Assembly (NCBI GenBank): GCA_020853975.1
Contig: JADYXW010000043.1
Span: forward strand, 16,045-80,044
Reading direction: 5' to 3'
Length of the DNA stretch: 64,000 nucleotides
Source of the DNA: Phycisphaerales bacterium
GTDB lineage: Bacteria; Planctomycetota; Phycisphaerae; Phycisphaerales; UBA1924
The position numbers were made by a program, and so were the translations under genes. Numbering within the stretch: position 1 is the first letter of the stretch; each line of letters opens with the position of its first letter. Positions 21,180-57,502 of the stretch are shown in pieces. The notes below the pieces were generated by a model. The model saw nothing but the letters and a program-made list of their open reading frames with translations, searched no databases and was not told the origin of the DNA.

Positions 21180-22313
21180 ATGAAGACGACGCGTCGGACG
21201 GGGGCGGGAATGAACGGTCTCCGGGCCTTCAGTCTCATCGAGTTGCTGGTGGTGATCGGGATCATCGCGCTGGTGATCGCCATCGTCGTGCCCGCGCTCG
21301 GGTACGCCCGGGATGCGGCTCGGAAGAGCGAGACGACAAACGTTGCGAACCAGGTGTCGCAGGCGTGCCTGACGTTCCAGCAGTCCGAGGGGCGACTGCC
21401 GGGCTTCTTCTCCGCGCGGGCGATGGCGCACACGGAGAACTCCACGCGGGGCTTCACCGCGATGCAGAACGCCATGCTCGACCTGATGGGGGGTGTCGTG
21501 GATACGGCGACGCCGCCCGCGGCGGATGAGATGGTGGTCGGGCCGTCGACCACGGACGTGGTGAAGGTGAAGCCCAGCCTGATCGGGACGAACTCGGCGG
21601 GCAACAAGGCGTACTTCACCCCCTCGGGCAAGTACTTCAAGGTGATGAACCAGGCGCTGCTCGGGTTCGGGCGCACGGGCGCGGGGTACGGCTGGACCTC
21701 CAACGCCGCGGGCGCGGGCACGGCCCAGGGCGGCTATGGCGAGGTGGTGGACGCGTGGGGCAACCCGCTGGTGCTGTGGTCGATCGACGAGTCGCAGCAG
21801 GGTGAGATCGTGGGGGCGACCCCCGCCGCGAACAACTTCTCTCAGGTGCGTGCGCCGGCGAACGCGAACCAGCCCTCGGCGCGGTTCTACTGGAACGCCA
21901 ACGCGGCGGTGTTCACAACTGCCCAGTACGCGATGAACGGGGCGAAGCCTGGTGCGGCCAGCCTGCTCGACAGCGGCACGGGCGACGATGAGAAGCGCGT
22001 GAACCTGATGGGACTCCTGGGAAACCCCGCCTCGCCCAAGGCGCTCGTGAACGCGGCTGGTAACGCGCTGACCGCGGCCCAGATCCTGCCCAGCGCGGGC
22101 CGGGGCACGGTGATCGTGCACTCCGCGGGCAATGACCGGACGTTCCTCTCCACGCTGGACCGGGGCGGGAAGCGAGCGGGCGGTTCGAGCCCCCGAAACC
22201 TGTACTACGGGCTGAACTTCCGCGCCAACGCCACGTCGACGGCGGACCTGCCGGGAGGGCAGTCCTCCGACATCATGAACGAGTTCGACGACATTCTGAT
22301 CCCCGGCGGCTGA
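21180..22313 (+). CDS. Prepilin-type / GspG-like pseudopilin (377 aa)
   Basis: GLRA|FSLIELLVVIGIIAL; F...GRLP; VDAWGNPL (GspG DPWGNPY-like); VHSAGND; GGAG RBS. Confidence 0.85.
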   Translation: MKTTRRTGAGMNGLRAFSLIELLVVIGIIALVIAIVVPALGYARDAARKSETTNVANQVSQACLTFQQSEGRLPGFFSARAMAHTENSTRGFTAMQNAMLDLMGGVVDTATPPAADEMVVGPSTTDVVKVKPSLIGTNSAGNKAYFTPSGKYFKVMNQALLGFGRTGAGYGWTSNAAGAGTAQGGYGEVVDAWGNPLVLWSIDESQQGEIVGATPAANNFSQVRAPANANQPSARFYWNANAAVFTTAQYAMNGAKPGAASLLDSGTGDDEKRVNLMGLLGNPASPKALVNAAGNALTAAQILPSAGRGTVIVHSAGNDRTFLSTLDRGGKRAGGSSPRNLYYGLNFRANATSTADLPGGQSSDIMNEFDDILIPGG

Positions 22314-22421: not shown

Positions 22422-25028
22422 GTGCGGAAGATCGGCTTGATGTTGGCGGGGGCCTGGGTGTGGGGCTGGGCGGCGGCGGCGCCCGCGCAGCTCGTGGTTG
22501 GCAATGACCTGCTGAGCGGCGCGACGATCTGGCTCGTCGACGTGACAGGCGCGAGGCCGCCCAGGGCCCTGGTGACCGGCACCGCCGCCCGCCTGCGGGG
22601 CCTCGCGGCGGACGACGCGGCGGGTGTGCTGTACTGGATTACCCCGACGGGGTTGTACCGGGCCGACTACACGCCCAGCGGCCCCTTGGCGCCTGTCTCG
22701 CTCGGGCCGATCACGGGGATCACGCGCTCGGTGTACGGGCTCGGGTACGACGCTCAGGGAGCCAGACTGATCGGACAGACCCAGGACGGGCTGGTGCAGA
22801 TCAACCCCGCGACGGCTGTCGCGTCGCCCATCTTTTCGCTCGCAGCCCAGGACCTGGGGGGTCTGGACTTTGAGCCTGTCACGGGCGTCCTCTACGGCTG
22901 CAACGACAGTGTGCTCAGCGGGCCGCTGGGCACGCGTGGGGTGTACCGCCTGAACGGGCCGCTGGAGAGCCCCACGTTCACGCGGGTCGCGGCGTACCCG
23001 GGAACGATGACGGACTTTGACGGGTTGGCGGCGGGTCCGGGCCGGGTGTACCTCGTGTATCAGACTTCCGCAGAACCCATTCACGTGCTGGACCTTCAGA
23101 CGGGACAGTGGGTGCAGACGCTGCCCAACCCTCTCGTGGGCACCGCGACGAGCGCCGGCGCGACGTGGGCCCCGGGGCTCATGGCGCTCGGGCCTGCCGC
23201 GGACATCGAGGTCGCGGTCGCGGCGCCACCGTCTTGCACGCTGCAGCCCGGCGAGGTGGGGGAGTTCGCGGTCGTGGTGACCAACCACGGGCCGCAGTCG
23301 GCGAGCGTCGCAGTGGCGATCACGCTGCCGACGACGGCGCCGTTTGCGAGTTCGACTCCACCCCTGACACCCGTTGCGGGGGTGCTGCATTGGCAGACGG
23401 CGGCGCTGGCATCCGGAGGGTCGGCGCAGGCCAGGGTGCGCGTAGTGCCGCAGACGCCGGGTGTTGTGCAACTGGGGGCGGCAGCGGCCGGCTCGCTCGA
23501 GGACCCGATCGGTGGGAATAACGGGGCGTCGGGGGAGACGGTGGTGCGCGCCCCGATGCCGGCGAGCGCTCGGGCGCGTGGGGTGCTGGTGGAGGGTGCG
23601 CCGGTGCCGGGGCTGCCCGGGGTCATCATTGCCGCCGGTGGGCTGGGACGCCCGACGCCGAGCCCGGATGGCCGTTGGTGGGTGGTGCGGGCCGGGATCA
23701 CGGATGGCGGGGCGGTGCTCTTGCGGGGCGAGGGCGAGGTTGTTGAAGTCGTCGCGAGAACGGGTGGATGGCCTCAGATTCCCTCGGCGCTCGGCGGCGC
23801 GTGGCCTCCCCGAGCGATCGATATGGCGGCCGCGGTGGACAACGCGGGGCTTGTGGCTTTCTCGGGAGAGACGACGGAGCCGGCGTCCCTGGACTCGTTT
23901 GTGGCGAAGCAGACGCCGGGCGGGTGGGTGCGGGTCGCGCAGGAGGGTGTTGCCGTGCCGGCTCTGGGGCCGAACGTGTGGTACGGCGCCTCGCGGGGCG
24001 GCGTCACGCTCAGCGCGTGGGGGGACACCTCGTTCTACGCCTCGCTTCAGGGGCCCGGGACCACTCCAACGACTCGGGAGGCGCTGCTCGCATTGGATGG
24101 CGGCCAACTCCTGGCGAGGTCCGGGGTGATGCTCCCCGCGGGTCAGGTCAACGGGGAGTTTGCGGCGTACCGCACCTTTGGCGTGGTCGGCGATCCACTC
24201 GGTGTCTTTGCCGCAGACCCTTGGGGCGCACGCTGGATGGCGAGGTGCTCTCTCGACGCGGATGCCTCGCACGATGAGGTGGCGGTGATGAACGGCGTGG
24301 TGGTGGCGCAGGAGGGCGCGCCCGGTCTGGAGCCCGGGTGCGTGGGCGCTGCGAACGGGCCGGCGGAGTTTGTGGGTGTGGACGCGGCCGGGCGATGGTG
24401 CCTGGTGGGCGCGTGCGCGACGGGCGGCTCGTGGGTGGCGCTGGAGGGGCAGGTTCTTGAGAGGAGCGGGGGGGCCATTCCCGGCGGATCGGGAGAATCG
24501 TGGGCGGGCGGGGGAGCCGTCTTTGTGCTCGCGGCGAGCGATGCGGCTGGCGGGCTGTTCGTCGGCGGGCGCACCGCCTCGGGCGGGCTGACGGGGCAGT
24601 GTGTCGTGGCGCCGGGCGGGATGGTGGTTCTTCGGTCCAACGACGCGGTGGACGTGAACGCCGACGGGTCGTTCAACGACGGCGCGTTTGTGCGCGGGCT
24701 CGTGCCGCACCTCGGGTTTGTGGATGATGCGAACCGTCCGTGGGCGGTGGTGGAGCTGCGCGGCGCCGACGCGGCGCTCTGCGGCGGGCCGGACGTGGTC
24801 GCCGGTCGGGCGCTCGTGGTTGTCACCGGGCTCACGCCTCCCGCGTGCGACCCGGATCTGAATCAGGATGGGAACGTGGATCAGGACGATGTGGCGTACC
24901 TGATCGACGTGGTGGGGGGCGGGGAAAACCCGAACGATATTGACCCGGACTTCAGCCGGGACGGGAACGTGGATCAGGACGACATCTCGGCGCTCATCAA
25001 CGCGGTGGGGGGGGGCGGGTGCCCGTAG
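22422..25028 (+). CDS. Secreted multidomain protein: propeller-like N-domain, DUF11-like domain, NxxGxxAF-type repeat region, C-terminal dockerin-like tag
   Basis: Signal peptide ...AAAAPA|Q; VVVTNHGP (DUF11-like); DNAGLVAF; terminal CDPD..NQDGNVDQDD x2..GGGCP. Confidence 0.8.
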   Translation: MRKIGLMLAGAWVWGWAAAAPAQLVVGNDLLSGATIWLVDVTGARPPRALVTGTAARLRGLAADDAAGVLYWITPTGLYRADYTPSGPLAPVSLGPITGITRSVYGLGYDAQGARLIGQTQDGLVQINPATAVASPIFSLAAQDLGGLDFEPVTGVLYGCNDSVLSGPLGTRGVYRLNGPLESPTFTRVAAYPGTMTDFDGLAAGPGRVYLVYQTSAEPIHVLDLQTGQWVQTLPNPLVGTATSAGATWAPGLMALGPAADIEVAVAAPPSCTLQPGEVGEFAVVVTNHGPQSASVAVAITLPTTAPFASSTPPLTPVAGVLHWQTAALASGGSAQARVRVVPQTPGVVQLGAAAAGSLEDPIGGNNGASGETVVRAPMPASARARGVLVEGAPVPGLPGVIIAAGGLGRPTPSPDGRWWVVRAGITDGGAVLLRGEGEVVEVVARTGGWPQIPSALGGAWPPRAIDMAAAVDNAGLVAFSGETTEPASLDSFVAKQTPGGWVRVAQEGVAVPALGPNVWYGASRGGVTLSAWGDTSFYASLQGPGTTPTTREALLALDGGQLLARSGVMLPAGQVNGEFAAYRTFGVVGDPLGVFAADPWGARWMARCSLDADASHDEVAVMNGVVVAQEGAPGLEPGCVGAANGPAEFVGVDAAGRWCLVGACATGGSWVALEGQVLERSGGAIPGGSGESWAGGGAVFVLAASDAAGGLFVGGRTASGGLTGQCVVAPGGMVVLRSNDAVDVNADGSFNDGAFVRGLVPHLGFVDDANRPWAVVELRGADAALCGGPDVVAGRALVVVTGLTPPACDPDLNQDGNVDQDDVAYLIDVVGGGENPNDIDPDFSRDGNVDQDDISALINAVGGGGCP
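24846..25028 (+). repeat. Dockerin-like tag copy 1 (60 aa + stop)
   Basis: C-DPDxNQDGNVDQDD...DPDFxxDGNVDQDD...GGxCP. Confidence 0.9.
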
Positions 25029-25219
25029 GGCGGCGAAAGGTTTGACTTGCGTTTGGGCGGGGGGTTGGTATACCTAGTGTGCGACGGTCGCCTCGAAGCG
25101 GCCGTGGACGTCGCGTGATCGGACCGAGCGGCCCCGCGGCCGGCGATGCGCGACGGGTGTCCCCGTAGGGGTGTCGATCTGTTCCGGCGACCGGTGAGAA
25201 CGAACGGAAAGGCTCAGGC

Positions 25220-28200
25220 ATGCGAAGCGCGAAACTCGGCATGGTGGTGACGGCGGCGGCGTTGTTCGGCGCTTGCGGCTTGGCGATGGGTCAGCATGCC
25301 CACTCCGAGAGCTGCGAGCATTCGGCAATGGACTTTGGTCTGCCCCAGTTCGACGTCCGCGAGCAGGCGGACGGGAGCGTTTCCAAGGGCGTGGCGGCGT
25401 CGATGGCGGCGTACCGCGGCTCGACGCAGTGGCAGAAGAGGCAGGCCTCGGCCGACGCCCTGCGGGCGATGGTCCCCAGCGTGAAGATCGACACCGACCC
25501 TCGCTATGGGTCGCCCCAGTTCGTGCGTTCCGTGTGGCAGTTCATGACCGGGCCCACGAAGGACACGCCCCGCGACGTGGCCCGGGGCTTCGTCAATCAC
25601 TACTCGGACCTCTTCGGCATCTCCTCGGCGGACCTGGACCGCTCCCGCGTCTCGCGTGACTTTGAGACCTCCGAAGGCCTCATGCACCACCTGACGTTCC
25701 AGCAGATGATCGACGGCATCGACGTCTATGGCTGCACGCTTATCGCGAACGTGACGGGCCGGGGCGAGCTCATCACCATCGGCAGCAAGATGGTGCCCAA
25801 CCCCGCCTCGGTGGACCCATACCAACTCGACGCGCACCAGGCCCTGCGGGCCGCGGCGGCGGCGTGCGGTGTGGCGATCACCACCATGCCCGAGCCCGGC
25901 GAGGCCAGCGGCGCCAACGAGCACCGCAAGTGGGTCAACTCCGCCGATTTCGCGAACGGCTACGAGATCGAGACCAAGAAGGTGTACTTCGCCAAGAGCC
26001 GCGGAGAGGTGGTCCCCGCGTGGTGGGTGATCGTGCCCGTGAAGGGCCCCGGCAACCAGTACGAGACGATCGTGGACGCCCGCACGGGCGAGCTGCTCTT
26101 CAGGCACAACCTGACGGTGTGGGAGACCACCCAGCCCGCGACGTACCGCGTGTACCCGCTGGACTCTCCGGCGCCGTGGAGCCCCGGCCCGGCGACGCCC
26201 GACGGGGCGCAGGCACCCTTCGTCGAGAGGCAGCTCATCACGGTGCAGCCCCAGGAGATCGCCCCGTACTCGCCCAACGGCTGGATCAACGACGGCGACA
26301 ACCGCACCGTGGGCAACAACGTCGACGCGTACTCCGACGCCGCCAACGATAACACGGCCAGCGACGCGGACCGCGCCGTCGGCACGGCGGCGCCGGGGCG
26401 GGTCTTTGACTTCGTGCACGATGTCAACCAGGCTCCGGGCGGCTTCAAGGACGCCGCGGTGACGAACCTCTTTGTCGCGTGCAACAGCTACCACGATCGG
26501 CTGTTCGCCATGGGCTTCAACGAGGCCGCGGGCAACTACCAGACGCTCAACCTGTCGGGCCAGGGCGTCGGTGGTGACGCGGTGCGGGCTGAGGCGATGG
26601 ACGGCAGCGGTACCAACAACGCCAACTGGTCCAGCACGGGTGCGGACGGCAGCGCGGCCCGCACCCAGATGTACATCTTCACCGGCCCCTCCCCCCAGCG
26701 AAACGGCACGCTCGATAACGACGTGGTCTACCACGAGCTGTCGCACGGCGTCTCGATCCGCCTGCACAACGGGCTGAGCGGCAACCAGAGCCGAAGCATG
26801 GGCGAGGGCTGGGGAGACTTCTACGGCACGTGCCTCAACGCCGAGCCGACCGACGATTTCAACGGAGTTTACACCACCGGCGGCTGGGTGACCAAGCAGT
26901 TCCTTTCCGCGACCTACCTCACCAACTACTACTACGGCATCCGGCGGTTCCCATACTCCACGGACATGCTGAAGAACCCGTATACGTTCGCGGACATCGA
27001 TCCGAATCAGTACGCGATCGGGAACGTGGGGACGCCCCCCAATCCGGTGATCGGCTCGACCTCCGGCTCGGCGAACGAGGTGCACAACGCTGGCGAGGTG
27101 TGGTGCAACGCACTGCTGGAGGCCCGCGCCTCCATGGGCATCGATGAGGGCTACGCGGCCAACCAGATCATCATGCAGCTCGCGGTGGACGGGATGAAGC
27201 TCGCGCCCGACGGCACACCGGACTTCCTGGACGAGCGCGACGGCATCCTGCTCGCGGACCTCACCCGCTATGGCGGTTCGCACCAGTTCCGGCTGTGGCA
27301 GGCGTTCGCAAAGCGCGGCATGGGCGAGAATGCCCTGTCGCCCGACTCGTCGACCAACGGCATCGTCGAGTCCTTCGATCTGCCGGTCCGCGTGGACTTC
27401 TCGTTCCCCGACGGAACGCCCGAGCAGTTCGGCGCCGACGGGCCCACGTCGTTCCGTGTCCTCGCGGAGCCCTTCAACCTGACCATCAACCCCGGGCCGG
27501 GCACGCTGTTCTACTCGATCGACGGCGGGGCGTTCAACTCCTTGCCCCTGCCACAGGTCGCGTCGGGCGAGTACCTCGCGTCGATCCCGGCCTCGCCGTG
27601 CTTCTCGACGGTGAGGTTCTACCTGGCGCTGAGCACAAACGTGGGCCAGCAGACCGGGCCCCGCAATGCGCCGGTCGGCTACTTCCAGGGCCTGACTTTC
27701 TCGGGCACCACGGAGTTCGCGAACCAGACCTTCGAGACCGACCCGGGCTGGACGGTGCAGAACACGGCGGTGCCCTCCACGCTGACGGTCCTTGGCGGCT
27801 GGACGCGGATGGACCCGGAACCGACGTTTAACGGCGCGCAGCTCTTCCAGCCCGGTGATGACCACACGCCTGACCCCGGCAGCATGTGCTGGGTGACCGA
27901 CGGCCGTGCGGGCACGACCGTGGGCCAGTGGGACGTGGACAACGGGTACACCGTGCTCACGACGCCGACGATCGACCTGTCGTCGGCCCCGCTGGTGGTG
28001 GTGGAGTACTGGCGCTGGTTCGCGTCGTTCTCCGCCGGCGCCACCGGGCACCTTGATCCCTTCACGGTGGAGGTGTCGAACAACAACGGCGCCACGTGGC
28101 AGGTGGCCGACAGCGTGGCGGTGGGCTCGCCCGTGGTCTATGACTGGGTGCGTTCGCAGTTCACCATGTCCGCGGCGACCATCCCGACGAGCGCGCAGGT

Positions 28201-28489
28201 CAAGTTCCGCTTCCGGGCGGAGGACACGGGAACGGCCCAAAACTTTGTCGAAGCCGCGATCGATGACTTCAAGATCTTCCGCTACGAGTGCAGCACCGGC
28301 CCGTCGTGCGACCCGGACTACAACCAGGACGGGAACGTGGACCAGGACGACGTGCGGTATCTCGTGGGCGTGATCGCGGGCGGGCCCAACCCGACCGGGC
28401 GCGACGCGGACTTCAACCAGGACGGGAACGTGGACCAGGACGACTACGCCGCGCTGGTGAACGTGGTGGCGGGTGGCGACTGCCCCTGA
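25220..28489 (+). CDS. Secreted M36 (fungalysin) metallopeptidase with FTP/PepSY propeptide and dockerin-like tag
   Basis: Signal peptide; HHLTFQQMIDGIDVYG (FTP); YETIVDARTGE (PepSY); TVGNN; HELSHG; GEGWGDF; GIRRFPYS; VHNAGEVW. Confidence 0.92.
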   Translation: MRSAKLGMVVTAAALFGACGLAMGQHAHSESCEHSAMDFGLPQFDVREQADGSVSKGVAASMAAYRGSTQWQKRQASADALRAMVPSVKIDTDPRYGSPQFVRSVWQFMTGPTKDTPRDVARGFVNHYSDLFGISSADLDRSRVSRDFETSEGLMHHLTFQQMIDGIDVYGCTLIANVTGRGELITIGSKMVPNPASVDPYQLDAHQALRAAAAACGVAITTMPEPGEASGANEHRKWVNSADFANGYEIETKKVYFAKSRGEVVPAWWVIVPVKGPGNQYETIVDARTGELLFRHNLTVWETTQPATYRVYPLDSPAPWSPGPATPDGAQAPFVERQLITVQPQEIAPYSPNGWINDGDNRTVGNNVDAYSDAANDNTASDADRAVGTAAPGRVFDFVHDVNQAPGGFKDAAVTNLFVACNSYHDRLFAMGFNEAAGNYQTLNLSGQGVGGDAVRAEAMDGSGTNNANWSSTGADGSAARTQMYIFTGPSPQRNGTLDNDVVYHELSHGVSIRLHNGLSGNQSRSMGEGWGDFYGTCLNAEPTDDFNGVYTTGGWVTKQFLSATYLTNYYYGIRRFPYSTDMLKNPYTFADIDPNQYAIGNVGTPPNPVIGSTSGSANEVHNAGEVWCNALLEARASMGIDEGYAANQIIMQLAVDGMKLAPDGTPDFLDERDGILLADLTRYGGSHQFRLWQAFAKRGMGENALSPDSSTNGIVESFDLPVRVDFSFPDGTPEQFGADGPTSFRVLAEPFNLTINPGPGTLFYSIDGGAFNSLPLPQVASGEYLASIPASPCFSTVRFYLALSTNVGQQTGPRNAPVGYFQGLTFSGTTEFANQTFETDPGWTVQNTAVPSTLTVLGGWTRMDPEPTFNGAQLFQPGDDHTPDPGSMCWVTDGRAGTTVGQWDVDNGYTVLTTPTIDLSSAPLVVVEYWRWFASFSAGATGHLDPFTVEVSNNNGATWQVADSVAVGSPVVYDWVRSQFTMSAATIPTSAQVKFRFRAEDTGTAQNFVEAAIDDFKIFRYECSTGPSCDPDYNQDGNVDQDDVRYLVGVIAGGPNPTGRDADFNQDGNVDQDDYAALVNVVAGGDCP
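28307..28489 (+). repeat. Dockerin-like tag copy 2; contains a perfect 31-nt direct repeat (28321-28351 / 28414-28444)
   Basis: CAACCAGGACGGGAACGTGGACCAGGACGAC twice, 93 nt apart. Confidence 0.92.
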
Positions 28490-28513
28490 GGTCCGTACCC
28501 AGACGCTTTTCCC

Positions 28514-28544
28514 GGGGTCGGCGCGTAACGGCGCCGACCCCTTT
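28514..28544 (+). terminator. Rho-independent terminator between the two M36 genes
   Basis: Perfect 11-bp stem GGGGTCGGCGC/GCGCCGACCCC followed by TTT. Confidence 0.7.
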
Positions 28545-28790
28545 GCGTAGTGAAGTGTCGTGGTGATTCGCTCCGTCTCCCGGGGCGACTGTCGGCGGCC
28601 GGGTTTCGCGGGGTTGAGGAGGTTTCCAGAGGTTCGGCTCAAGCATGTCCGGTAACGAAGCGATGGAACCCGGTGTGTTCCGGGTCGGGGGTGGGACTCG
28701 CGATGTGAGCATGTGCGGTTTGTGTGACGTTTGGCTCCAGTGGGGAAATGAACTGCCGGGTCCTGTTCGCAGGGCCGGAAAGGGGAAGCG

Positions 28791-31700
28791 ATGAACGGAG
28801 AGATCAGGGGTCGTCGGGTGCTGGCGTCCGTGGTGACGGTGCTGGCGCTCGCGGCTGGAACGGCGGCGGGCGTGAGCGGGCCTCAGGGCGAGGAGGGTGT
28901 GGACCCGAAGTACGGGCTGCCGTTCTTTGACATCAAGCTCGGCCAGCAGGACATCCCCACGCAGGCGGCGCTGGCAGCGGTCGCGAACTGGAAGAAGTCC
29001 CCGGCCTATCAAGCGAAGCTGGACGACGAGGCGGCGCTGCGGGCGACCGTCCGCGACATCCGCATCGACGAGCACTGGGCGCTCGGCTCCGCGCAGTACG
29101 TCCGCTCCACCGCCTCGTTCCTCACTGGTCCCTCCAAGGCGGCACCCCGCGACGTGGTGCGTGGCTGGTTCGCGGCGCACCAGGGCCTGATGGAGCTCGA
29201 CCTCGCGGAGCTGGATTCCTTCCCCCTCACGCGCGAGTTGGACACACACGACGGGCTGATGCACCACTTCACGTGGCAGCAGCGGATCAACGGCCTGGAC
29301 CTGTACGGCGCGGAGTTGAAGGCCAGCGTCACGGGCCGGGGCGAGCTGATGAACGTCGGCAGCACGATGATCCCCACCAAGGGGCTCCCGATCCCCGCGC
29401 CGGTCCTGAGCGACCTTGACGCGGTCCGCGTCGCCGCGGCAAACGTGGGCATCGCGCTCACCGCCGAGCCGACCCCCGGCCCCGCGTCTGGCGCCGAGGA
29501 GAAGCGCACGTGGACGGCGTCCAAGGACTTCGGGAACCAGGACCCCATCGAGTCGCGGCGTGTGTACTTCGCGCGCAACCGCGGCGAGGTGGTGCCCGCG
29601 TGGTACGTCGTGATCCCCGCGCCCGGCCCCGGCAACACGTATGAGATGGTGGTGGACGCGGTGAGCGGCGAGACGCTCTATCGCTGGAACCGCCTGCACT
29701 GGGACACCACGCAGTCCATCACGATGCGGGTGTATCCGAAGGACAGCCCCGCCCCGGGCTCGCCCGGCCGCGCCCTGCCGGACGGCGGACAGTTCGCGCA
29801 CGTCGCGCGCAGCCTCATCACCGTGACTCCGGCGCAGATGTCGCCTTTCTCGCCCAACGGCTGGATCAACGACGGCGACAACCGCACGGTCGGCAACAAC
29901 GTCGACGCGTACACGGACGCGGCCAACGACAACACAGGCAGCGATGCCGACCGCGCCATCGGCACCGCTGCGCCGGGCCGCGTCTTTGATTTCACGGCGA
30001 ACATCGGCTTTGAGTCGGGCGACGCGCCGAGCGTCTACCGCGACGCCGCGATCACGCAGCTCTTCTACAACAGCAACCACTACCACGACCGCCTCTACGC
30101 CTTCGGTTTCAACGAGGCGGCCCGGAACTTCCAGACGACGAACTTCACGGGCCAGGGCGTGGGCGGCGACCCCGTCCGCGCCGAAGCCCAGGACGGCAGC
30201 GGCACCAACAACGCGAACTTCGGCACCAGCGGCACCGACGGCTCGAGCGCCCGCTGCCAGATGTACGTCTGGACCGGGCCCACGCCCGATCGCGACGGCG
30301 ACTTCGACACCGAGATCATCTACCACGAACTCTCCCACGGCCTCTCGATCCGCCTGCACGGCGGCGGGCTGACCGGAACGCAGGGCGGCGGCATGGGCGA
30401 GGGCTGGGGCGACTTCTTCGGCGCCTGCCTCAACGCCGAGCCCGCGGACGATTTCTCCGCTGTTTACGCCATGGGCGGCTACGGCACGTACCTCGGCGCC
30501 GCCGGGTATACCAACAACTACCACTACGGCATCCGGCGCTTCCCGTACTCCATCGACTTTGCCAAGAGTCCGCTCACCTACGCCGACGCTGACGTCGGCC
30601 AGTACAACGCCGACGGCGTGGCCCGCGGGCCCTTCGGCTCCGCGACCGCCAACGCGGTGCACAACCTGGGCGATATCTGGTGCAACGTGCTGCTGGGCGT
30701 GCGGCGCGAGGTCGCGCTCAGCGAGGGCTTCGCCGCCAACGACATCCTCATGCAGCTCGTCGTCGACGGCATGAAGCTCGCCCCATCGGCCCCCAACATG
30801 CTCCAGGAGCGAGACGGCATTCTGCAGGCGGACTTGACCCGCTACGGCGGGGCGCACCAGGCGGCCCTGTGGCGCGGGTTCGCACGGCGCGGCCTTGGCT
30901 TCAGCGCCTCCAGCCCAACGGGCGGCGCCACCGCCGGCATCGTCGAGGCCTTCGACACGCCCCAGCGCGTGGATATCACCTTCCCCGCCGGCACTCCCTC
31001 GCAGCTTGACCCCGGCTCTGCAAGCAGCTTCCAGGTCCGCTTCACGCCGGTGGATGTCACCGTCACCTCCGGCACGCAGCAGCTTTTCTATTCGGTGAAC
31101 GGCGGCGGGTTCACGGGCGTCGCCATGGCGCCCCTGGGCGGCGAGTTCTATCAGGCGACCATCCCCGGCCTCGCCTGCTTCGACAACGTCCGGTACTACG
31201 TGCAGACGGGTTCTTCCATCGGCAACCAGGTCAGCCCCTCGGGCGCTCCCGCGAGCACCTTCTCCGCGACCGTGCTGACCGGCACCAACGTCTTCTTCTC
31301 CGACGACATGGAGATCGACCGCGGCTGGGTCGGCGGCCAGCCCGGCGACACCGCGGCCACGGGCATCTGGGGCCGCATGGACCCGGAGGCGACCGCCGCC
31401 CAGCCGGGCGACGACGTCTCCAACCCCGGCACGATCTGCTGGGTGACCAACGGCGTCGCCGGCGCCTCTGTGGGCGCCAACGACGTGGACGGCGGGTTCA
31501 CCACCCTGCTCTCCCCGGCCCTCGCCCTCGCGGGCCAGCCCGACGCCACGATTTCCTACTGGCGCTGGTACTCCAACAACGCCGGCAGCGCGCCCAACGC
31601 GGACACCTTCCGTGTGGAGATTTCGGCGAACGGCTCCACCAACTGGGTGGCGCTCGAGACCGTCGGGCCGGTTGCCGAGTCCAGCGGCGGCTGGATCTTC

Positions 31701-32030
31701 CACGCCGCCCGTGTTGGCGACTTCGTGACGCCCACGAACACCACCCGCGTGCGCTTCATCGCCGACGACAGCGGCACGGGGTCGATCGTCGAGGCGGCGG
31801 TCGATGAGTTCCGCGTCGTGCAGCCCGTGTGCGTGCCGCCCCAGCCCTGCGATCCGGACTTCAACCAGGACGGCAACGTCGACCAGGACGATGTGAACTA
31901 TCTGATCAACGTGATCGGCGGCGGGGCGAACCCCAGCGGTGCCGACCCCGACTTCAACCAGGACGGCAACCTCGACCAGGACGACGTTTCGGCCCTCATC
32001 GACGTGGTCGCCGGCGGCGACTGCCCCTAA
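28791..32030 (+). CDS. Second secreted M36 metallopeptidase (paralog) with dockerin-like tag
   Basis: Same architecture; HELSHG, GEGWGDF, GIRRFPYS, VHNLGDIW. Confidence 0.92.
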   Translation: MNGEIRGRRVLASVVTVLALAAGTAAGVSGPQGEEGVDPKYGLPFFDIKLGQQDIPTQAALAAVANWKKSPAYQAKLDDEAALRATVRDIRIDEHWALGSAQYVRSTASFLTGPSKAAPRDVVRGWFAAHQGLMELDLAELDSFPLTRELDTHDGLMHHFTWQQRINGLDLYGAELKASVTGRGELMNVGSTMIPTKGLPIPAPVLSDLDAVRVAAANVGIALTAEPTPGPASGAEEKRTWTASKDFGNQDPIESRRVYFARNRGEVVPAWYVVIPAPGPGNTYEMVVDAVSGETLYRWNRLHWDTTQSITMRVYPKDSPAPGSPGRALPDGGQFAHVARSLITVTPAQMSPFSPNGWINDGDNRTVGNNVDAYTDAANDNTGSDADRAIGTAAPGRVFDFTANIGFESGDAPSVYRDAAITQLFYNSNHYHDRLYAFGFNEAARNFQTTNFTGQGVGGDPVRAEAQDGSGTNNANFGTSGTDGSSARCQMYVWTGPTPDRDGDFDTEIIYHELSHGLSIRLHGGGLTGTQGGGMGEGWGDFFGACLNAEPADDFSAVYAMGGYGTYLGAAGYTNNYHYGIRRFPYSIDFAKSPLTYADADVGQYNADGVARGPFGSATANAVHNLGDIWCNVLLGVRREVALSEGFAANDILMQLVVDGMKLAPSAPNMLQERDGILQADLTRYGGAHQAALWRGFARRGLGFSASSPTGGATAGIVEAFDTPQRVDITFPAGTPSQLDPGSASSFQVRFTPVDVTVTSGTQQLFYSVNGGGFTGVAMAPLGGEFYQATIPGLACFDNVRYYVQTGSSIGNQVSPSGAPASTFSATVLTGTNVFFSDDMEIDRGWVGGQPGDTAATGIWGRMDPEATAAQPGDDVSNPGTICWVTNGVAGASVGANDVDGGFTTLLSPALALAGQPDATISYWRWYSNNAGSAPNADTFRVEISANGSTNWVALETVGPVAESSGGWIFHAARVGDFVTPTNTTRVRFIADDSGTGSIVEAAVDEFRVVQPVCVPPQPCDPDFNQDGNVDQDDVNYLINVIGGGANPSGADPDFNQDGNLDQDDVSALIDVVAGGDCP
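31848..32030 (+). repeat. Dockerin-like tag copy 3
   Basis: CDPDFNQDGNVDQDD...DPDFNQDGNLDQDD...AGGDCP. Confidence 0.92.
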
Positions 32031-32124
32031 GTGATCTTCCACGCCCGGGAGGGGGGAAGCCCCTTCCGGACGCTTGCAGCACCGCTATTTCAGTCACCCG
32101 TCGCACGCCCCGAGAGGACGATTC

Positions 32125-34446
32125 ATGCGCACTTCCCTCACGCTCGCGCTGGCGCTCGCTGCCGGCACCGCCGCCGCCCAACCCGACCTTGGCTTCGACG
32201 AGTGCGGCTGCGGCAAGGCGCACATGCTCCGTCAGCTCGAGGAGCAGGGTTTCGAGATTCACGAGCAACGGCCCGCGGGATACTCCAGCCGCGAGGCATT
32301 CGCTGACACCGACCTGCTGCACACCGATCTTGATATCGAGATCGTGCCTTCGACGGACAACATCTCCGGCTCGAACGTCATGCGGGTGAAGTCGCTCTCG
32401 CCCAGCCTGACGCAGTTCACGTTCATGCTGCGGAGCAACTTCACGATCTCGTCGCTGACAGTGGACGGCACGCCCGCGACGGTCTCCGGGCCCAGCGGGA
32501 ACAGCTACGCCCGCACCGTCACGCTCCCCAGGGTGTACGGGCTGAACGAGGAGTTCACCGTTTCGATCACCTACGCGGGCACCGCGGTCTCCCGCGGGTT
32601 CGGGTCCATCACCTTCGGCACGCAGAACGGCGTGGATCTCGTGAGCACCCTCAGCGAGGCGTACTACGCGGCCACGTGGTGGCCCATCAAGGATGGCGAC
32701 GTCTTTCTCCCGGGCAACAACGGCGACAAGTTCACGCTGTCGCTCGCCGTGACGGCACCCTCGGGGCTGCGCACCGTGTCCAACGGGCTGCTTGCCCCGG
32801 GGTTCCCCCAGACGCTCAGCGGCGGGCGGAGTAAGTACAAGTGGCAATCGGGCATCCCCATCGCGCCATACCTTGTCGCGTTCTCCAGCACCAACTACAA
32901 CACATGGACGCGCACGTACTCCTACCCGCTGGAAGGGGGCGGGACGGGGAGCATGCCCGTGGAGTTCAACATCTACCCCGCGAGCGACACCGGCGGCAAC
33001 CGGGCCGCGTGGGAGAAGTGCCTCGACATGCTCGCGGCCTATCGCCCCGTCTTCGGTGAGTACCCGTTCGTTTCGGAGAAATACGGTATTTACCAGTTCT
33101 CCTTCGGGGGCGGGATGGAGCACCAGACCAACACCGGGCAGGGCACGTTCTCCGAGAGCGTGACGGCCCACGAGCTGGGGCACCAGTGGTGGGGGGACAA
33201 TGTGACCTGCAAGACGTGGAACCACATCTGGCTGAACGAGGGCTTCGCCACCTTCAGCGAGGCGGTGTGGGAGGAGCGCAAGCCGGGGTCCTCCGGGCTG
33301 CCCGCCTATCTCGCTGCGATGGTGGCGCGCAAGCCCGCGCAGGTGGGCGACAGCGTGTACGTCTATGACACGTCCAGCATGAACCGCATCTTCAGCAGCA
33401 CCTACACCTACCGCAAGGGCGGGTGGACCCTCCACCAGCTCAGGAAGCTCATGGGCGACGCGGCGTTCTTCGAGGCGCTGAACGAGTACCGCCAGGAGTT
33501 CCAGGGAGGCGCAGCGACCACCGAGGACTTCTTCAACATCGCTTCGGCGGTCGCGGGGCAGGACCTGACGTGGTTCTCGCAGCAGTGGGTGTACGGCGTG
33601 GGGGCGCCGGCGTATTCGTACGGCTGGCAGAACGTCAGCATCAACGGCCAGAACTATCTCGCGATGAGCCTCTCCCAGACGCAGGACGCGGCGTGGCCTG
33701 GGTCGCCCGCGCAGTCCGGGTACTTCCGCGCGGGCATCGACGTGCGGGTCGATACAGCGGGCGGCCCGGTGACGGTTCCCGTCCAGAACGCCGCCCGCTC
33801 CCAGTGGTACCTGCTGCCCATCCCCGCGCCCGCCACGGGTGTCACGCTCGACGAGTTTGATTGGGTGCTGAACACCGAGAAGACGGCGGGTTCCTATCAG
33901 AACGGGCCGCCCAAGGTGGTCGCGGTGAGCCCCGCGCCCGGGACGGCTGGCCCAGCGGCGCCGAGCACGGTCACGGTCACATTCAGCGAGCCCGTCACGG
34001 TGCCGGGTGGCTCGGTGACTCTGACGGGTCCAGGGGGCTCCGTCGCGGGCAGCGCCTCGTACGATGCGCCGACGCGGACCGTGACCTTCACCCCCGCCTC
34101 CGGGCTTGGTCCTGGGGCGTACACGCTCTCCGTGGGCTCGACGGTCACTTCGTCCGCGGCGGGCCTTCCGCTCGATGGCGAGTTCGCGGGCGTGCTCCCC
34201 TCGGGTGATGGCTTGCCGGGGGGCGTGGCGTCCTTCGGGTTTGTGGTCGAGCCCGCGACGGGCTGTGATCCGGACGTGAACCAGGACGGCAACGTCGATC
34301 AGGACGACGTGTCGTACCTCATCAACGTCGTGGGTGGGGGCGAAAACCCGACCGCGATCGACCCGGACTTCAACCAGGACGGCAACGTGGACCAGGACGA
34401 TGTCGCGGCGCTGATCAACGTCGTGGCCGGGGGCGCCTGCCCCTGA
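32125..34446 (+). CDS. Secreted M1-family aminopeptidase with Ig-like (Big_5/SbsA-like) domain and dockerin-like tag
   Basis: GGMEH; HELGHQWWG..(18)..WLNEGFA; TYRKG; PKVVAVSP...VTFSEPV; GAGGA RBS before ATG 32125. Confidence 0.92.
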   Translation: MRTSLTLALALAAGTAAAQPDLGFDECGCGKAHMLRQLEEQGFEIHEQRPAGYSSREAFADTDLLHTDLDIEIVPSTDNISGSNVMRVKSLSPSLTQFTFMLRSNFTISSLTVDGTPATVSGPSGNSYARTVTLPRVYGLNEEFTVSITYAGTAVSRGFGSITFGTQNGVDLVSTLSEAYYAATWWPIKDGDVFLPGNNGDKFTLSLAVTAPSGLRTVSNGLLAPGFPQTLSGGRSKYKWQSGIPIAPYLVAFSSTNYNTWTRTYSYPLEGGGTGSMPVEFNIYPASDTGGNRAAWEKCLDMLAAYRPVFGEYPFVSEKYGIYQFSFGGGMEHQTNTGQGTFSESVTAHELGHQWWGDNVTCKTWNHIWLNEGFATFSEAVWEERKPGSSGLPAYLAAMVARKPAQVGDSVYVYDTSSMNRIFSSTYTYRKGGWTLHQLRKLMGDAAFFEALNEYRQEFQGGAATTEDFFNIASAVAGQDLTWFSQQWVYGVGAPAYSYGWQNVSINGQNYLAMSLSQTQDAAWPGSPAQSGYFRAGIDVRVDTAGGPVTVPVQNAARSQWYLLPIPAPATGVTLDEFDWVLNTEKTAGSYQNGPPKVVAVSPAPGTAGPAAPSTVTVTFSEPVTVPGGSVTLTGPGGSVAGSASYDAPTRTVTFTPASGLGPGAYTLSVGSTVTSSAAGLPLDGEFAGVLPSGDGLPGGVASFGFVVEPATGCDPDVNQDGNVDQDDVSYLINVVGGGENPTAIDPDFNQDGNVDQDDVAALINVVAGGACP
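34264..34446 (+). repeat. Dockerin-like tag copy 4
   Basis: CDPDVNQDGNVDQDD...DPDFNQDGNVDQDD...AGGACP. Confidence 0.92.
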
Positions 34447-57035: not shown

Positions 57036-57345
57036 TCAGGGGCAGGAGCCCCCGGCGACCACGTCGATGAGCGACGAGATGTCGTCCTGGGCGGCGTTGC
57101 CGTCCTGGTTGAGGTCCGAGTCGCACGCCTGCGGGAGCAGGTGTTCCCGCACCCGGGTGATCGCGGCGTCGTGCGTCGGCGTCTGCCGCTTGGGCGGGTT
57201 GGAGAGAGCGGACGTTTGCGAGGACGCGGATCGCCCGGGCGGTTTGGCGTGCCTTGCCCGGCGCGGGCAGCAGCAAGCCGATGAGCAGGGCGATGAACGC
57301 GACCGCGACCAGCAGCTCGATGAGCGTGAAGGCTCGAACGCGCAT
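57036..57345 (-). pseudogene. Decayed chimera: prepilin 5' fragment, out of frame with a half-deleted dockerin-like 3' end
   Basis: MRVRA|FTLIELLVAVAFIALLIGLLLPAPGKARQTAR... in one frame; CDSDLNQDGNAAQDDISSLIDVVAGGSCP* (57036-57125) in another. Confidence 0.75.
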
Positions 57346-57502
57346 GGAAATGATCCCAACGTGCGGATCGATCGGTGCGATGTGGGTTGAGAGGGACCGG
57401 GTTACGGGCGGCTCGGCGCGCTGTGGCGTGCTCCCGGGGTGGATCTTGCGGCAGAGCGTCCCCCGGGCATGAAGGGGAATCCGCGCGGCGGAGGTCAGAG
57501 GG

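Follow-up and report, generated by a model that had tools for sequence, protein, structure and literature searches.

Four adjacent genes in a 64,000-nucleotide stretch of the genome of an uncultured Phycisphaerales bacterium (assembly GCA_020853975.1, contig JADYXW010000043.1, positions 16,045 to 80,044 of the forward strand; hereafter the window) encode secreted proteins, among them two M36 and one M1 metallopeptidase, that end in the same 60-residue dockerin-like tag. A preliminary description of this DNA had proposed that the tag gathers the four proteins into a cellulosome-like protease complex on the cell surface. We find that the tag is a general label of the exoproteome, peptidase-rich but not peptidase-specific, and that the four proteins should rather be described as a conserved protease island within a genome-wide set of dockerin-tagged exported proteins. 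In the reading that we consider most likely, at about even odds, the tag would give about 100 Sec-exported proteins of this genus a shared C-terminal address, through calcium-dependent docking to a lineage-specific surface receptor.

The 3.12-Mb assembly consists of 110 contigs and is 95% complete. A hidden Markov model (HMM) built from the four tags of the window and searched against the open reading frames (ORFs) of the genome matched 109 ORFs. The tag is full in 101 of these, and 88 of the 101 end exactly at the last residue of the model, at Cys-Pro and the stop codon. The E-values for the four tags and about 100 others were between 1e-25 and 1e-37, which excludes chance similarity. About 75 copies have the canonical form of the tag, and contigs often break inside tags. 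Using a heuristic of our own we recognised Sec-like N-termini in approximately 79 of the tagged ORFs, with 18 more cut by contig ends, and all tagged proteins with a complete N-terminus look Sec-exported. The shared tag is thus real, but it is not confined to the four genes in which it was first noticed.

The genome-wide count and cargo list that the preliminary description had suggested returned a very mixed set of proteins. Among 96 tagged proteins scanned with Pfam there are 17 peptidases (M36 eight times, M12B three times, M10 and S8 twice each, M1 and M14 once each), alongside legume-type lectin, Ig/I-set, PKD, LTD and CotH domains, di-haem peroxidases, a multicopper oxidase, sortilin/BNR domains and several propellers. 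For each half of this set the 25 commonest cargo families were listed, and none of them is a glycoside hydrolase. The tag is found on every one of the eight M36 genes in the genome but on only one of the three M1 genes, the last gene of the island. A protease-specific surface complex does not agree with a tag that ends about 100 proteins of mixed function, and for which no cohesin or scaffoldin was found.

The tails of the four island proteins align without gaps over 60 residues (183 nucleotides including the stop codon) and follow the consensus C-DPDxNQDGNVDQDD...GGxCP-stop. They are 67-76% identical, with 39 invariant columns, while outside the tag only the two M36 proteins are related to each other. 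Each tag contains two tandem loop-helix segments that match the dockerin pattern, in which a segment of about 22 residues opens with a 12-residue loop D-x-N/D-x-D-G-x-x-D/N-x-x-D, and loop positions 10 and 11 are Gln and Asp in all eight loops, as had been read before. The model made by AlphaFold2 on the tag alignment, with the fourth tag as lead sequence, had a predicted local distance difference test score (pLDDT) of 94.3 and placed helices at residues 17-27 and 48-58, directly after the loops. When this model was compared with the PDB using Foldseek, the best 31 matches were all dockerins (probability 0.9-1.0, template modelling score 0.57-0.71), and a profile of 92 tags from the genome matched solved clostridial and ruminococcal dockerins with an E-value of about 1e-6. 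The dockerin architecture that had been proposed is upheld by these comparisons, and the assignment of the tag to the dockerin fold, as predicted, is sound. The tag is also very acidic and has two canonical calcium loops, which would bind Ca2+. All 82 ungapped tags of the genome have both Cys1 and Cys59, and a disulfide probably joins these two residues, the first and the second to last.

Existing models catch this form of the tag poorly. Pfam Dockerin_1 scored the isolated tags at 22.5-29.3 bits against a threshold of 22.9, so that the first copy falls below it. On the full-length island proteins only the M1 peptidase passes (23.2 bits); the first M36 protein scores 17.2 and the other two are unlisted. 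Dockerin_1 reached an E-value of 1e-4 or better in 25 of the 96 tagged proteins. The closest curated model is NCBIfam NF041540, the 'GC-type dockerin', which is the family that the preliminary description had named; its view that this family has no established partner also agrees with our search, in that the term 'GC-type dockerin' was not found in the literature searched. The four window tags score 14.5-21.2 bits with NF041540, whose cut-off is 29, and none of the 92 genome tags reached that cut-off (applied as the E-value equivalent to about 29 bits). Judged by these scores, the tag is a relative of NF041540 that forms a sister subtype without a model of its own.

What holds the copies alike is selection on the protein sequence. 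The 82 ungapped tags have a mean protein identity of 72%, and where two tags share a residue they use the same codon in 66.3% of pairs, compared with 60.5% expected from codon usage. As synonymous sites are therefore close to random, gene conversion can be ruled out as the source of the uniformity. Gln10 and Asp11 of both loops are invariant or nearly so in these tags. Positions 10 and 11 are not calcium ligands in EF-hand or F-hand loops, and their conservation argues for a conserved interaction surface.

The subtype is also a property of the lineage. It occurs in 57-117 copies in all eight genomes of the genus and in 0-20 copies in the other genera of the family. Canonical NF041540 matches show the reverse, with 20-111 in the sister genera and 0-8 in this genus, so that within the genus the subtype replaces the canonical GC-type tags wholesale. 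Neither kind of tag was found in three families of the same order. A metagenome-assembled genome (MAG) of Tepidisphaera (GCA_016124375.1) contains an M12B-M36-M1-Ig-unknown island in which every member is tagged, here with the variant NQDGVADQGD...GGxCP. Tags from one genome share more positions with each other (45.8 and 49.6 of 60) than tags of orthologues do (41-42 of 60). The columns that tell the Tepidisphaera tags apart are loop positions 7, 11 and 14, and these have changed in parallel in both repeats.

The M36 peptidases allow a wider comparison. The set comprised the 120 closest homologues, all at 42% identity or more and most above 90% coverage, and about 73 of them have Cys-ended, two-repeat dockerin-like tails. 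These tails belong to many subtypes, with QD, QG, GA, GD, GF, PD, VQ, SD and other pairs at loop positions 10 and 11. Two other C-terminal domains occur on 23 and 20 of the 120 homologues, and the NCBIfam models for M36 include ones named as myxosortase-, rhombosortase- and T9SS-dependent (T9SS, type IX secretion system). By this comparison, the tag takes the place on M36 where a module for surface sorting or anchoring belongs. Taken together, the selection on the tag, its replacement across the genus, the symmetric changes in Tepidisphaera and the exchangeable M36 tails suggest a shared partner that co-evolves with the lineage. The variable positions would behave as specificity determinants that track one such partner, while a twofold, dual-mode surface is kept. 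The single dual-mode partner of the preliminary description fits this symmetric conservation, which is as far as we take it.

The two domains that replace the tag on M36 proteins of other Planctomycetota (P0025-P0119) have the patterns ...SNA.E..FLP and ...YYRD..FC..N.TNG...W.P, and are probably further unnamed address modules.

The obvious partner for a dockerin is a cohesin. We agree with the preliminary description that there is none in the window, and extended the search to the genome, where Pfam, a family-level cohesin HMM and hhalign all failed to find the cohesin-like or scaffold protein that it had proposed to look for. Cohesins are present in three other relatives of the 40 scanned, in cohesin-HYR-dockerin proteins of the type described for the 'planctosome' (see below), and these three relatives have few or none of this tag subtype. 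One such protein, from relative G012, gave no match when used as a query against our genome. An HMM of five cohesin modules from relatives, together with a phmmer search for each module, reached a best E-value of about 0.005 against the six-frame ORFs, on short spurious ORFs. In hhalign comparisons of the cohesin profile with 36 PEP-CTERM proteins and 96 tagged proteins all probabilities were 1.1% or lower. It is possible that a partner with the cohesin fold and without sequence similarity lies beyond sequence-based searches.

Other candidates were considered. The genome has one exosortase, which we rejected as a discriminating partner of the tag, since exosortase is present in 41 of 41 relatives irrespective of tags. 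Around 36 small PEP-CTERM-type proteins of 200-300 residues (VPAPG...LLGLGGL...RRRR; for example at C13:17192-19043, C47 and C9:58338-63636) are plausible candidate receptors; Pfam assigned no fold family to the ten that were scanned. Eight PEP-CTERM proteins form a family with shared WFWYR and FFQYSDFDLGG motifs. We also screened for scaffoldins by fragment BLAST, looking for internal repeats in untagged proteins. The screen returned a TPS-domain giant, a giant secretin, housekeeping proteins, a fibre-like Gly-rich protein and a Cys-rich-repeat protein, and only the last of these is scaffoldin-like. Encoded at C86:29281-30351 (+ strand) of our genome (G000), it has a signal peptide, six tandem 45-residue Cys-rich repeats (GACC..C..L....C....G.YRG.G..CG.D.C) and, at its end, a dockerin-type sequence unlike the tag (CPCDWNHDG...AGCG); the protein matches no Pfam family. 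The number of repeats varies from 6 to 17 among orthologues, whereas this tail is retained from genus to genus. Of 41 relatives, 17 have the repeat. All 12 genomes of families f3-f6 are without it; among these families, f3-f5 essentially lack tags and f6 has a few. As it is missing from many tag-rich genomes, this protein is a weak lead as the partner of the tag. Upstream of its gene, and divergent from it, lies a gene (C86:27295-29142, - strand) whose product ends in a DsbA/thioredoxin-like motif.

The giant secretin (C77:24003-35621, + strand, outside the window) is 3872 residues long and has 34 Secretin_N stretches (PF03958; 1044 bits) followed by a single C-terminal Secretin domain. This count of Secretin_N is far above that usual in secretins of type II secretion systems or type IV pili. 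It is possible that the protein forms a long periplasm-spanning conduit, and it might serve as the exit route for folded tagged proteins. A prepilin-type motif was found in 32 ORFs of the genome.

The docking model that we favour would begin with the signal peptide, which would direct each protein into the periplasm. The tag would then fold oxidatively and load Ca2+, the folded protein would cross the outer membrane, and the tag would dock in a calcium-dependent manner on one abundant, lineage-specific surface receptor that is not a sequence-recognisable cohesin. The two M36 endopeptidases of the island, its M1 aminopeptidase and an orphan protein specific to the genus would be displayed beside the other tagged proteins; endo- and exopeptidases would come near each other merely through this general display system, and no dedicated complex would be required. 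Several points weigh against this model. No receptor was found by any method tried, so that docking is still a hypothesis. Pfam detected a cohesin in none of the eight genomes of the genus (our own, 95% complete, and seven congeners), and in the literature searched we found no GC-type dockerin that had been localised, seen by proteomics or assayed for binding. The exosortase and the PEP-CTERM proteins already provide the genome with a second surface-sorting route, and strict placement at the C-terminus is equally typical of secretion signals. Alternatively, the tag could be an export or sorting signal, read by an outer-membrane translocation or processing machinery in the manner of T9SS, with release or covalent transfer to follow. 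A type II-like system that includes the giant secretin could be that machinery. Such a signal would suit the strictly terminal position of the tag and the Sec-type start of every tagged protein with a complete N-terminus. It would also be in keeping with the T9SS, myxosortase or rhombosortase signals that M36 proteins bear in other phyla, with the unnamed C-terminal domains on M36 in other planctomycetes, with the failure to find a cohesin in the genome or genus, and with the secretin, the prepilin-type ORFs and a syntenic pseudopilin gene that heads the island. Known dockerins, however, are binding modules and not translocation signals, and no processing enzyme or machinery has been tied to the tag by co-occurrence, the association with secretin and pilins being circumstantial. 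The twofold symmetry and the symmetric changes between lineages are moreover the classical signature of dual-mode cohesin binding, which is unexpected in a secretion signal. We therefore regard a sorting signal as possible but unlikely, although this alternative, which the preliminary description had mentioned, lies nearer to the evidence than the protease complex.

The tag might also have no protein partner, and act as a calcium-binding, disulfide-stapled stabiliser or as a Ca2+ bridge to substrates or to anionic polymers such as lipopolysaccharide, capsule or exopolysaccharide. Its acidity, its two calcium loops and the failure of all searches to find a protein receptor would be consistent with this, as would the wide distribution across life of dockerin-like modules without cohesins, for which Peer et al. 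are cited in PMC6461901. A pure stabiliser has no need of invariant, non-liganding surface residues (Gln10, Asp11, Asn7), nor of changes that run in parallel through the two repeats of every tag in a genome, or a wholesale exchange of subtypes between genera, and we find this explanation rather doubtful. A dedicated cellulosome-like complex, in which a scaffold gathers the two M36 peptidases, the M1 peptidase and the orphan for protein degradation at the surface, seems improbable to us. In its favour, the island is conserved within the genus, and the M36-M1 pair is kept together with M12B in the Tepidisphaera MAG, all of them tagged. The peptidase share of the cargo, with no glycoside hydrolase among its listed commonest families, the one scaffoldin-like protein and a protease 'planctosome' hypothesised for another Phycisphaerae family (PMC6461901) point the same way. 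Yet around 80 non-peptidase proteins share the tag, and no cohesin was found by HMM or hhalign. The cohesin-HYR-dockerin adaptor of some family relatives was not found in our genome, searches of many tag-rich relatives did not find the Cys-rich-repeat protein, whose binding of the tag would be conjecture, and the gaps between the island genes do not prove a single operon. Returning to docking, a bolder form of the idea would join the tag and a non-cohesin receptor into a lineage-wide 'exoproteome docking' system of Phycisphaerales, in which some 3-4% of genes would be addressed to one receptor and specificity would lie at loop positions 7, 11 and 14 of both repeats, re-tuned wholesale between genera. 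The scaffold or receptor could then be the Cys-rich-repeat protein or one of the PEP-CTERM proteins. We offer this form as a speculative proposal that is itself rather unlikely.

The tag can be set against several known systems. The tags described by NF041540 (dockerin_GC, 67 positions) are likewise Cys-bracketed two-loop modules, with a Cys at the start and a Gly-Cys type end, and form the very end of many secreted Phycisphaerae proteins that are otherwise unrelated, in large paralogous sets within each genome. Our subtype differs in its length of 60 residues, its Cys-Pro end, its GG-x-NP linker and its NQDGNVDQDD loops; it scores below the cut-off of that model and replaces the canonical form in the genus. 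With the type I dockerins of clostridial and ruminococcal cellulosomes (PF00404; for example PDB 2VN5/2VN6, 6KGE, 1OHZ and 5LXV) the tag shares a duplicated F-hand in what is predicted to be the same fold, an internal twofold symmetry of the sort on which dual-mode binding rests, and variation between lineages around loop positions 10 and 11. In contrast to these dockerins, it is found in a Gram-negative planctomycete, has a Cys clasp at both ends, carries proteases, lectins and oxidases as cargo instead of glycoside hydrolases, and is present in about 100 copies without a detectable cohesin and with borderline Pfam scores.

A surface protease complex of this general type has already been published, as the unproven 'planctosome' hypothesis for Nemodlikiaceae, also of the Phycisphaerae, in which dockerin-bearing Zn peptidases (M12B, M14) at the surface degrade peptides (Andrei et al. 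2019, ISME J, PMC6461901). That model rests on recognisable cohesins in an LTD anchor and on a cohesin-HYR-dockerin adaptor (PMC6461901). In our genome, too, the tag occurs on M12B, M14 and LTD-domain proteins, but the LTD cohesin anchor and the adaptor were found neither there nor in the genus. Our results support the hypothesis weakly, and we found no test of it since 2019 in the literature searched. The C-terminal domain of T9SS and the PEP-CTERM/exosortase system resemble the tag in that they end large numbers of secreted proteins that are otherwise unrelated, and in other phyla M36 cargo bears T9SS or sortase-type signals. They are a beta-sandwich or a transmembrane helix where the tag is predicted to be a helical dockerin. 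No dedicated machinery has been identified for the tag, and PEP-CTERM and exosortase coexist with it.

Many bacteria and archaea have dockerin-like modules but no cohesins, and the binding target of such modules has long been sought. In the small genome studied here, about 100 genes, including every M36 protease, are given over to one tag of this kind. The comparative pattern, namely a selected sequence, symmetric changes between lineages and wholesale switches of subtype, narrows the likely features of the partner and yields specific residues for mutation. If a receptor is found, it would explain how these abundant aquatic, phototroph-associated planctomycetes keep protein-degrading exoenzymes on the cell, and would provide a compact, disulfide-stabilised docking pair for protein engineering; were it not a cohesin, dockerins would gain a partner of a new class. 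At present the subtype falls below, or only just reaches, the NCBI and Pfam thresholds, and the proteins are therefore annotated without their tag.

The island itself (Table 1) stands as it was originally described. Four adjacent, co-oriented genes encode secreted proteins with one shared tag, and the coordinates in the ORF list of the window, the Sec-type signal peptides at the start of all four proteins and the ungapped alignment of their tails all agree. The DUF11 domain of the orphan spans residues 261-370 (30.8 bits), in a protein with a weak NxxGxxAF-type repeat; a match to TIGR05002 is below the cut-off of that model. Its homologues are confined to the genus (78-92% identity), apart from one at 28%. 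The two M36 peptidases are paralogues with 51% identity, and the public protein nearest to the second (98% identical) bears only the name 'M36 family metallopeptidase [Phycisphaerales bacterium]'. For the M1 gene a start at the ATG at 32125 (MRTSLTLALALAAGTAAAQ) is likelier than one at the TTG at 32074. The intergenic gaps are 191, 301 and 43 nucleotides.

Table 1. Island genes, their tags and a partial tag, in window coordinates
Feature	Coordinates	Strand	Matches and scores
Gene 1, secreted orphan protein, 868 aa, with C-terminal tag	22422-25028	+	Pfam DUF11
Gene 2, secreted M36 (fungalysin-type) metallopeptidase, 1089 aa, FTP propeptide, C-terminal tag	25220-28489	+	Peptidase_M36, E 7.9e-86
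Gene 3, secreted M36 metallopeptidase, 1079 aa, FTP and C-terminal tag	28791-32030	+	Peptidase_M36, E 2.2e-96
Gene 4, secreted M1 aminopeptidase-type metallopeptidase, 790 aa, Big_5/CopC-like Ig domain, tag	32074-34446	+	Peptidase_M1, E 7.1e-29; Big_5
Tag copy 1, 60 aa plus stop, CDPDLNQDGNVDQDD...DPDFSRDGNVDQDD...GGGGCP-stop	24846-25028	+	Scanned alone: Dockerin_1 22.5 bits, NF041540 21.2 bits
Tag copy 2	28307-28489	+	Scanned alone: Dockerin_1 24.9 bits
Tag copy 3	31848-32030	+	Scanned alone: Dockerin_1 23.0 bits
Tag copy 4	34264-34446	+	Scanned alone: Dockerin_1 29.3 bits
Short ORF with a half tag (one repeat) at its end, ...CDSDLNQDGNAAQDDISSLIDVVAGGSCP-stop	57036-57359	-	Partial match to tag HMM, model positions 32-63

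Directly upstream of the island, at 21180-22313 (+ strand), is a gene for a GspG/DUF1559-like pseudopilin of 378 residues (FSLIELLVVIGIIALVIAI...). The block of pseudopilin, orphan, M36, M36 and M1 is syntenic in the congener G002, with identities of 93, 78, 93, 93 and 90%, respectively, and the M36-M1 grouping is a real, conserved proteolytic island. The G002 orthologue of the orphan (contig C52) is deposited at NCBI under the label 'Leptolyngbya sp. PLA1'; the MAG with this label derives from a co-culture with a phototroph. It seems that G002, a Phycisphaerales bin, carries a cyanobacterial label, which hints at a genus that lives in cyanobacterial consortia.

Beyond the canonical form, a subtype of the tag with the motif CEECCDxD ends six further M36-like proteins, and another subtype, PYCDGDFNWDGN, ends proteins of about 260 residues encoded directly downstream of these M36-like genes. 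The two genes form a cassette with at least seven copies, in which the gene for the CEECCDxD-tagged, M36-like peptidase is followed by the overlapping gene for the secreted protein of about 260 residues with its PYCDGDFNWDGN...ADYNRDGNEDQDD tag (C99:23978-29344, C39:1-4785, C67:3-3934, C14:24919-28325, C107:1-3617, C76:40884-44299 and C75:155-1858). The smaller protein has no family assignment, and contigs often break at these cassettes. In the window, the half tag listed in Table 1 is probably a decayed copy of the tag or one from which a repeat has been deleted.

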